From the NCBI RefSeq assembly GCF_044324785.1, contig NZ_CP172127.1: a stretch of 64,000 nucleotides of DNA; one strand, 5' to 3'. The position numbers and the translations under genes are program-made. This DNA is from Escherichia coli. GTDB lineage: Bacteria; Pseudomonadota; Gammaproteobacteria; Enterobacterales; Enterobacteriaceae. Of the stretch, positions 1-680 are shown piece by piece (position 1 is the first letter of the stretch; every line of letters begins with the position of its first letter). The notes below the pieces were generated by a model that worked only from the letters and a program-made list of their open reading frames with translations, was not told the origin of the DNA and did no database searches.

Positions 1-680
1 CCACGCAGTTACCTGCTCCAACACGCGACAGCCAGCGTCAGGCGGCAGCAAGTCAGTTTCAGCAACGAACACACGCCGCACCCGTCATTACGCGAGATAC
101 CCAACGTCAGGCAGCGGCACAGCGGTTAAATGAAGCTGAACACTATGGGAGCTATGACGACTTCCGCGACTTCAGCCGTCGCCAACCACTGACCCAGCAA
201 CAAAAGGACGTTGCTCGTCAGCGTTATCAGTCGGCCTCTCCTGAGCAGCGCCAGGCAGTCCGCGAGAAAATGCAGACTAACCCACAGAACCAGCAGCGAA
301 GAGAGGCGGCGCGCCAGCGTATTCAGTCCGCCTCGCCTGAGCAGCGCCAGGCAGTCCGCGAGAAAATGCAGACTAACCCGCAGAACCAGCAGAGAAGAGA
401 AGCGGCGCGTGAGCGTATTCAGTCCGCATCACCAGAGCAGCGCCAGGTGTTTAAGGAAAAAGTACAGCAGCGCCCACTGAACCAACAGCAACGTGATAAT
501 GCCCGCCAGCGTATACAATCGGCATCACCTGAACAACGTCAGGTTTTTCGGGAGAAAGTTCAGGAGAGCCGCCCACAACGTCTAAACGACAGTAACCATA
601 CTGTCAGGCTGAATAACGATCAACGGTCAGCAGTACGCGAACGTCTCTCTGAGCGCGGAGCAAGGCGACTGGAAAGGTAA
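1..680 (+). CDS. yacH: YacH-like repeat protein, C-terminal part (5' end outside window)
   Basis: Frame is open from the window edge (first full codon at 3) to TAA at 678-680. Product carries tandem 32-aa repeats (SASPEQRQAVREKMQTNPQNQQRREAARQRIQ). Lies 70 bp from lpd on the opposite strand, as in E. coli. Confidence 0.75.
   Translation, partial: TQLPAPTRDSQRQAAASQFQQRTHAAPVITRDTQRQAAAQRLNEAEHYGSYDDFRDFSRRQPLTQQQKDVARQRYQSASPEQRQAVREKMQTNPQNQQRREAARQRIQSASPEQRQAVREKMQTNPQNQQRREAARERIQSASPEQRQVFKEKVQQRPLNQQQRDNARQRIQSASPEQRQVFREKVQESRPQRLNDSNHTVRLNNDQRSAVRERLSERGARRLER
237..580 (+). repeat. Four tandem 96-bp in-frame coding repeats inside yacH, progressively degenerate
   Basis: cctgagcagcgccaggcagtccgcgagaaaatgcagactaacc recurs at 240 and 336 (period 96), with diverged copies near 432 and 528. 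The repeat keeps a second frame open (ORF 211..480). Confidence 0.8.

Follow-up and report, generated by a model that had tools for sequence, protein, structure and literature searches.

The 3' third of the Escherichia coli gene yacH contains an in-frame coding minisatellite, in which units are quite probably gained and lost by misalignment and encode two-helix modules in an exported protein tail. The array was analyzed in a stretch of 64,000 nucleotides, hereafter the window (NCBI RefSeq assembly GCF_044324785.1, contig NZ_CP172127.1), and compared with other genomes. Tandem copies beyond chance, a unit that stays in frame, polymorphism among strains and in-register hybrid units, i.e., the features by which an in-frame coding minisatellite is recognized, were all observed.

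The repeat array and its surroundings

The window opens inside yacH. The gene start lies upstream of the window, the stop codon occupies positions 678-680, and all matching E. coli records carry the annotation "yacH: DUF3300 domain-containing protein". The gene is convergent with lpdA (751-2178, minus strand), which is followed by aceF, and beyond the pyruvate dehydrogenase genes and secA the gene order continues to the leu, ilvI, ara, sgrR and thi genes. Over its first 25 kb, the window is 99.6% identical to strain N3. The following features of the yacH region are referred to below.

3-680, plus strand: 3' part of yacH, encoding a DUF3300 protein; 226 codons including the stop, assigned from the translation and from the RefSeq annotation under every match
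24-137, plus strand: two copies (24-68 and 93-137) of another conserved motif, RD(S/T)QRQAAA, upstream of the array, with near-invariant columns across genera
81-215, plus strand: 135-bp (45-aa) segment that varies among E. coli alleles, being present twice in P0001 (662 aa) and missing from the H22 pseudogene (L009)
193-477, plus strand: open run of 95 codons in the +1 frame; an ORF from TTG at 211 would give 89 aa
219-314, plus strand: repeat unit 1 (A1), QRYQSASPEQRQAVREKMQTNPQNQQRREAAR; 8 of 96 bases differ from unit 2
315-410, plus strand: repeat unit 2 (A2), QRIQSASPEQRQAVREKMQTNPQNQQRREAAR; shares at most 44 consecutive identical nt with unit 1
411-506, plus strand: repeat unit 3 (B), ERIQSASPEQRQVFKEKVQQRPLNQQQRDNAR, placed by unit alignment; its body occurs exactly once in 4,890 of 5,426 genomes
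507-602, plus strand: repeat unit 4 (C), QRIQSASPEQRQVFREKVQESRPQRLNDSNHT; similarity to the other units persists in its head half only
609-677, plus strand: C-terminal segment (last 23 codons) in which the motif recurs a fifth time in very degenerate form (LNNDQRSAVRERLSERGARRLER; NDQRSAVRERL); helix predicted at fragment residues 205-224
693-721, no strand assigned: hairpin between an A-run and a T-run in the yacH-lpdA spacer; fold energy -15.9 kcal/mol, z-score -3.3, none of 200 shuffles as stable

Tandem Repeats Finder reported a 96-bp period at 219-447 (2.4 copies, 90% matches, score 374) and a lower-identity extension of the same period at 219-488 (82%). In the yacH frame, where 96 nt correspond to 32 codons, four head-to-tail units stand in register at 219-602. 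The first two both encode QR(Y/I)QSASPEQRQAVREKMQTNPQNQQRREAAR, and the other two are diverged copies of it. Between units 1 and 2, 88 of 96 positions are identical, unit 3 matches unit 2 at 64 of 96, and unit 4 matches units 1 and 2 at about 50%. Expressed as differences per 96 bases, the values are 8 for units 1 and 2, 32 for units 2 and 3, 39 for units 3 and 4, 48 for units 1 and 4, and 45 for units 2 and 4. The original prediction had described tandem 96-bp in-frame repeats in yacH, two of them nearly identical and two degenerate; the repeat score, the multiple-of-three unit in the yacH frame and the gap between 8 differences for one pair and 32-48 for the others all bear this out. Its limits of 237-580 fall inside the real array but trim it slightly. 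On either side of the array, the motif of the C-terminal segment is kept in other genera, and in the upstream RD(S/T)QRQAAA copies the columns Q11, R12, A14, A15, Q34, R35, A37 and A38 are nearly invariant across genera.

Six of the differences between units 1 and 2 of the window are synonymous, and a single codon (Y/I) is altered, which gives a dS of 0.36, a dN of 0.027 and a ratio of 0.07. Synonymous sites make up 22% of the unit, and the binomial probability of at least six synonymous changes among eight is about 0.002. A comparison of the window with K-12 over the 226 codons likewise gave a dS of 0.176 and a dN of 0.023 (dN/dS 0.13). Judged from these substitutions, units 1 and 2 are copies of old standing whose protein sequence has been kept similar. 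Conversely, dN/dS between A1 and A2 of K-12 is about 1; thus, constraint on the module is not uniform. Since its similar units have diverged and share a longest identical run of only 44 nt, the four-unit allele of the window should be comparatively stable.

Strain N3, otherwise near-identical to the window, differs from it at 25 positions in the first 760 nt, and 15 of these lie at 284-437, inside the array. Several of the differences make unit 2 resemble unit 1, and this pattern suggests exchange between units or alleles. The 760 nt of yacH with 25 differences between the window and N3 (L021) are followed by 1,600 nt with 11. For most E. coli genomes, identity to the window is only 90-95% over the 760-nt query and rises to 95-99% over lpdA-aceF.

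The prediction had further held that the repeats keep a second long frame open, and positions 193 to 477 indeed contain no stop in frame 1. This frame stays open for 64, 95 or 127 codons in other alleles, scaling with the number of A units; it is therefore a by-product, explained by the absence of stops from the unit in this frame. That it encodes a real overlapping protein has next to no chance of being correct. Such a protein could draw on 95 codons without a stop, on the TTG start at 211 and on a frame that is open in other alleles too, but the stepwise lengths are those expected of a by-product, the units differ by substitutions that are synonymous when read in the yacH frame and not in the +1 frame, and RefSeq annotates nothing in the latter. 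Moreover, the sole database products in the +1 frame begin in the yacH frame: P0125, P0135 and P0136, from a metagenome-derived protein library, are frameshift chimeras that leave the yacH frame for the +1 frame (…SASPEQRQQFTRKCRLTRRTSSEERQRVSAFSPPRLSSARCLRKKYSSAH). The suggestion that the open frame can mislead gene callers was not supported by RefSeq, which called yacH in every fetched record (once as a pseudogene, L009), whereas the frameshifted library fragments P0125 and P0135 do run into that frame.

Downstream of the array, the GC-rich hairpin at 693-721 between the convergent yacH and lpdA is probably a bidirectional terminator. It was missed by a simple pattern scan for terminators, and no Rfam RNA family overlaps window positions 1-760. 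In strains with an allele lacking unit B, the yacH-lpdA spacer is enlarged by an insertion of about 170 bp, inside the terminator region (L007, i.e., FDAARGOS_1303, at 2185-2425; also L008 and L009). This insertion, absent from the window, resembles a REP element by sequence (…GGATAAGGCGTTTACGCCGCATCCGGCA…). Farther along, aceF (2383-4275, minus strand) has in-frame internal repeats of its own, with three similar segments in translation, and these produce extra off-diagonal matches in every genome. An above-threshold Rfam match to PssrA (24538-24627, minus strand, 105.5 bits) concerns a family described as a plasmid-encoded Shigella sRNA, and the window is chromosomal. The other Rfam matches were all expected: tp2 (6956-7069), naRNA4 (18343-18418), STnc40 (18822-18891), the Leu leader (46128-46277), SgrS (51036-51262) and the TPP riboswitch (54027-54126).

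Copy number and allele structure in E. coli

Copy number was surveyed in 5,426 complete E. coli genomes, 5,425 of which matched a 760-nt query (window 1-760). Among 60 rows taken evenly down the ranking, 33 had the full span of 760 nt; spans shorter by 96 nt were found in 20, by 97 nt (a 717-nt match) in two and by 108 nt in one, and four rows were partial matches. Two 60-nt probes, the specificity of which had been confirmed beforehand on fetched yacH loci, allowed units to be counted by type. The A-body probe matched 8,831 places in 5,392 genomes, with one to three per genome, and the B-body probe matched exactly one place in 4,890 genomes. This divides the collection into about 3,440 genomes with at least two A units, about 1,950 with one, and about 535 without B. 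Assuming two A units in every B-less genome, as is true of the three of three that were fetched, an estimated 2,900 or so genomes (53%) have four or more units and about 2,490 (46%) have three; few have five. The split obtained with the probes agrees with the sample of 60 spans.

Records fetched for individual strains revealed the corresponding proteins. An allele of 617 aa has four units (K-12, VCSW7), alleles of 585 aa have three units in two different structures, and further alleles comprise one of 587 aa with a third structure, one of 581 aa and one pseudogene (H22, L009). All sampled rows of O157:H7 and K-12 derivatives have four units, and all ST131-type rows have three. Copy-number alleles thus track clonal lineages, and changes are recurrent and not rapid, which amounts to slow minisatellite evolution. 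A 252-nt three-body probe intended for counting five-unit genomes did not discriminate, as its pieces were joined differently than expected. Its two top matches had a longer span, and one of these, strain W24, was fetched and found to have five units.

The proneness to copy-number change that had been predicted is reflected in the presence of 3, 4 or 5 units among complete E. coli genomes and of three-unit alleles in at least three structures. Invariant copy number across many strains, together with independent divergence of the repeats, had been named as evidence that would speak against it; copy number varies across strains, but the two similar units of the window did diverge independently at synonymous sites.

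Unit-by-unit DNA comparison identified a hybrid unit at the junction in each of the three three-unit structures. In ANT, PV0838 and 2009C_3612, the array reads A1-[A2-like head+B body]-C. FDA1303, SCU-204 and H22 have A1-A2*-[A-like or B head+C body], with the B body missing. Iso00225 has [A1 head+A2* tail]-B-C, and its A-unit type is the same as that of the ST131-type rows. Since the three hybrid junctions differ, the three-unit alleles do not derive from a single deletion.

A series of alleles that differ in copy number only provides a closer view of the process. ANT has A1-B-C, EM18-18-42 has A1-A2'-B-C, and both the W24 genome and contig L022 have A1-A2'-A2'-B-C, where A2' joins the first 15 B bases to a body with 0 differences from A1; across the series, the repeat bodies show no base differences. 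In the match list of the 252-nt probe, HS, E24377A and APEC O78 have the same span as EM18-18-42 and a near-identical score. The exchange point of the series lies within a 22-nt stretch, GCCTCGCCTGAGCAGCGCCAGG, common to the A1 and B heads. A breakpoint in this shared head, along with identical repeat bodies, fits a recent misalignment.

Taken as a mechanism, units would misalign via the conserved head common to all of them (...GCCTCGCCTGAGCAGCGCCAGG...), through replication slippage or unequal sister-strand exchange. This route is modeled on the misalignment of tandem repeats known from E. coli, a mechanism reportedly worked out by Lovett and colleagues. Whole modules would be added or removed, leaving a hybrid unit at the junction and never breaking the reading frame, and E. 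coli lineages would thereby come to carry 3, 4 or 5 modules. The hybrid junction unit found in every structure is what in-register misalignment predicts.

A phase-variable contingency locus operating by frame switching was considered and rejected, because every length variant seen is a multiple of three and keeps the frame. Within clones, the sampled O157:H7, K-12 and ST131-type rows were uniform, a statement that applies to the sampled rows only. More broadly, the array could be a contingency or antigenic-variation device, i.e., an exposed protein whose repeats change rapidly under host or phage selection, like those of pathogen surface proteins. Along these lines, yacH is more diverse than its neighbors (25 differences per 760 nt against 11 per 1,600 nt in the comparison with N3), pathotypes differ in their alleles, and a published table lists YacH as "extracellular" (PMC9600279). 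This reading is nonetheless very improbable: changes that are all in frame allow no on/off switching, the rows sampled from any one clone (O157:H7, K-12 derivatives, ST131-type) all agree in copy number, the protein shows an N-terminal hydrophobic segment only, with nothing that points to an outer-membrane or surface-anchor domain, and the units of the window have diverged to at most 44 nt of perfect identity. Slow gain and loss of units by misalignment remains the preferred reading.

The encoded tail and its relatives

In the full-length K-12 orthologue, the DUF3300 domain (PF11737) spans residues 75-333 (E 1.5e-78, 263.8 bits) and is the only Pfam domain found. It lies upstream of the window start, and the repeats fall outside it. 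YacH has one hydrophobic segment, at residues 11-29 (mean hydropathy 1.91), and is otherwise polar; thus, the tail is probably exported, most likely to the periplasmic side. The repeat region of K-12 carries a net charge of +14 and consists of 22% Gln and 19% Arg.

Two structure models were considered, both weak and usable for secondary structure only. For the full protein, AlphaFold gave a poor model (pLDDT 41), and the model of the 225-residue fragment encoded in the window reached a pLDDT of 66 and a pTM of 0.25. The latter places helices at fragment residues 80-92/94-109, 112-123/126-141, 144-155/158-173 and 176-188, corresponding to window positions of about 240-278/282-329, 336-371/378-425, 432-467/474-521 and 528-566. 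Local pLDDT is 70-83 over fragment residues 31-140, and the values of the repeat helices are the highest anywhere in the protein. The prediction, made with modest confidence, is of two short helices per 32-aa unit, starting at Ser-Pro-Glu-Gln and Asn-Pro-Gln.

Related repeats also occupy the same place in YacH of other enterobacteria. Three 32-residue units are present in E. albertii and in a divergent Escherichia lineage, 20-residue STPEQRQARRENVQQR units in an uncultured enterobacterium, and 18-19-residue NPTAQQQQRRE units in Kluyvera, Klebsiella and Enterobacter. A scan of genome contigs for orthologues covered at least 11 loci, outside Salmonella and Citrobacter. Across genera, the motif takes the form (S/T)P.Q(R/Q)Q...RE, with periods of 18-20 or 32 residues, so that the motif is conserved while period and number turn over. 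By inference, the 32-aa unit of Escherichia looks like a doublet of the shorter unit.

When the tail was compared with 1.8 billion representative proteins, 25 matches were obtained at E<=0.001, and most were YacH fragments. The few others are secreted TPEQR-repeat proteins, two of which (P0144, P0145) pass the DUF3106 threshold. In these comparisons, the repeat tail is confined to Escherichia and close enterobacterial relatives. Profile searches of the PDB yielded no credible solved-structure relative of the tail, the one weak match being an Arabidopsis protein chain (E 0.032), and they returned no CpxP or Spy chain. With the full-length YacH profile, only weak matches to receptor fusion constructs were found, at the His/Asp-rich part.

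Length variation in yacH extends beyond the 96-bp units. The 135-bp segment at 81-215 has short Ala-Ala repeats at its edges at the protein level. A 12-bp (IQQR) stretch, at the site equivalent to window 285-296 (unit 1, codons QNQQ), is duplicated in P0047 (621 aa) and deleted in L006 (581 aa). Upstream of the window start, YacH residues 303-330 include a His/Asp-rich tract (DWDDDDHDHHHHDNDDYHHHDGGH; about 1330-1420 in L002, 1214-1263 in L022) with a 21-bp period according to Tandem Repeats Finder. In-frame length variants of this tract account for proteins of 609, 616, 624 and 631 aa, and Iso00225 has an extra HD. The composition and period of the tract suggest metal binding and a second slippage-prone site in yacH. 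In-frame indels across the tail, the pseudogene of strain H22 and a frameshifted yacH reported in a Salmonella isolate (PMC10048834) fit a weakly constrained tail.

These observations raise the alternative that the tail is a disordered low-complexity spacer without a sequence-specific role, the repeat number of which drifts neutrally, the predicted helices being an artefact of its Gln/Arg/Glu-rich composition. The low pTM and the very poor full-length model would be expected of such a spacer, as would the many tolerated in-frame indels, pseudogene and frameshifts, the scarcity of relatives (25 at E<=0.001 among 1.8 billion, mostly YacH fragments) and the dN/dS of about 1 between A1 and A2 of K-12. 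Against this stand the dN/dS values of 0.07 between units 1 and 2 of the window and 0.13 between the tails of the window and K-12, an SP/NP-led motif that is kept across genera despite turnover of period and copy number, and a local pLDDT of 70-83 in the repeat helices, the highest in the protein. On balance, a featureless spacer is unlikely, and a tail of two-helix modules is preferred.

Function, significance and comparison with known systems

Literature searches for yacH identified two papers that discuss the gene, and neither describes the repeat (PMC9600279; PMC10048834). According to the former, yacH is CpxR-regulated and repressed by protamine, and deleting the gene raises survival on protamine (PMC9600279). 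Evidently, yacH is dispensable. A bolder proposal is that the SPEQRQ/NPQNQQRRE module is an undescribed periplasmic repeat, the number of which (3, 4 or 5) is tuned by lineage and sets the interaction of Cpx-regulated YacH with cationic peptides or anionic envelope polymers, so that the variation would be adaptive and not neutral; we regard this as a long shot.

The practical value of the yacH repeat is modest. For typing, the array offers a clean, lineage-informative length polymorphism beside the pyruvate dehydrogenase operon. For assembly and annotation, it is a potential source of error, as short reads could collapse identical units and frameshift errors within the array give long spurious products. 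The tail of a reportedly Cpx-regulated envelope protein consists of modules whose protein sequence stays similar while units come and go, and alleles with 3, 4 and 5 modules form a natural series for testing the role of YacH.

Several known families and loci invite comparison. The gene that bears the repeats is a clear member of the DUF3300 family, and the repeats themselves lie outside the domain. DUF3106 and LTXXQ (CpxP/Spy) proteins are exported and contain tandem short helices starting with (L/S/T)(T/S)PEQ(R/K), as is predicted for the YacH tail. Membership of the tail in DUF3106 was rejected (8.1 bits, E = 5, against a cut-off of 24.3 bits), as was membership in LTXXQ (PF07813), which matched neither the tail nor full-length YacH at E<=10. 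The likeness is one of motif style only and may have arisen by convergence. The MLVA marker ms11 of E. coli and Shigella has a polymorphic 96-bp unit and alleles of 4.5-7 copies (PMC8215070). Species, unit length and copy-number polymorphism are shared with yacH, but the locus is a different one: the ms11 primers are absent from the window (allowing up to 3 mismatches) and from 22 fetched yacH loci (exact match).

The yacH repeat is an ordinary coding minisatellite, previously undescribed in the literature found, and not a new kind of element. Unlike the coding minisatellites (in-frame VNTRs) of bacterial envelope and surface proteins, it has a small range (3-5 units), clone-stable alleles, a probably periplasmic product and no sign of immune or phage selection. 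Like them, it consists of head-to-tail units with a length that is a multiple of three and a copy number that varies among strains, and it shares with them hybrid junctions, breakpoints in the best-conserved part of the unit and identical units in recently changed alleles.
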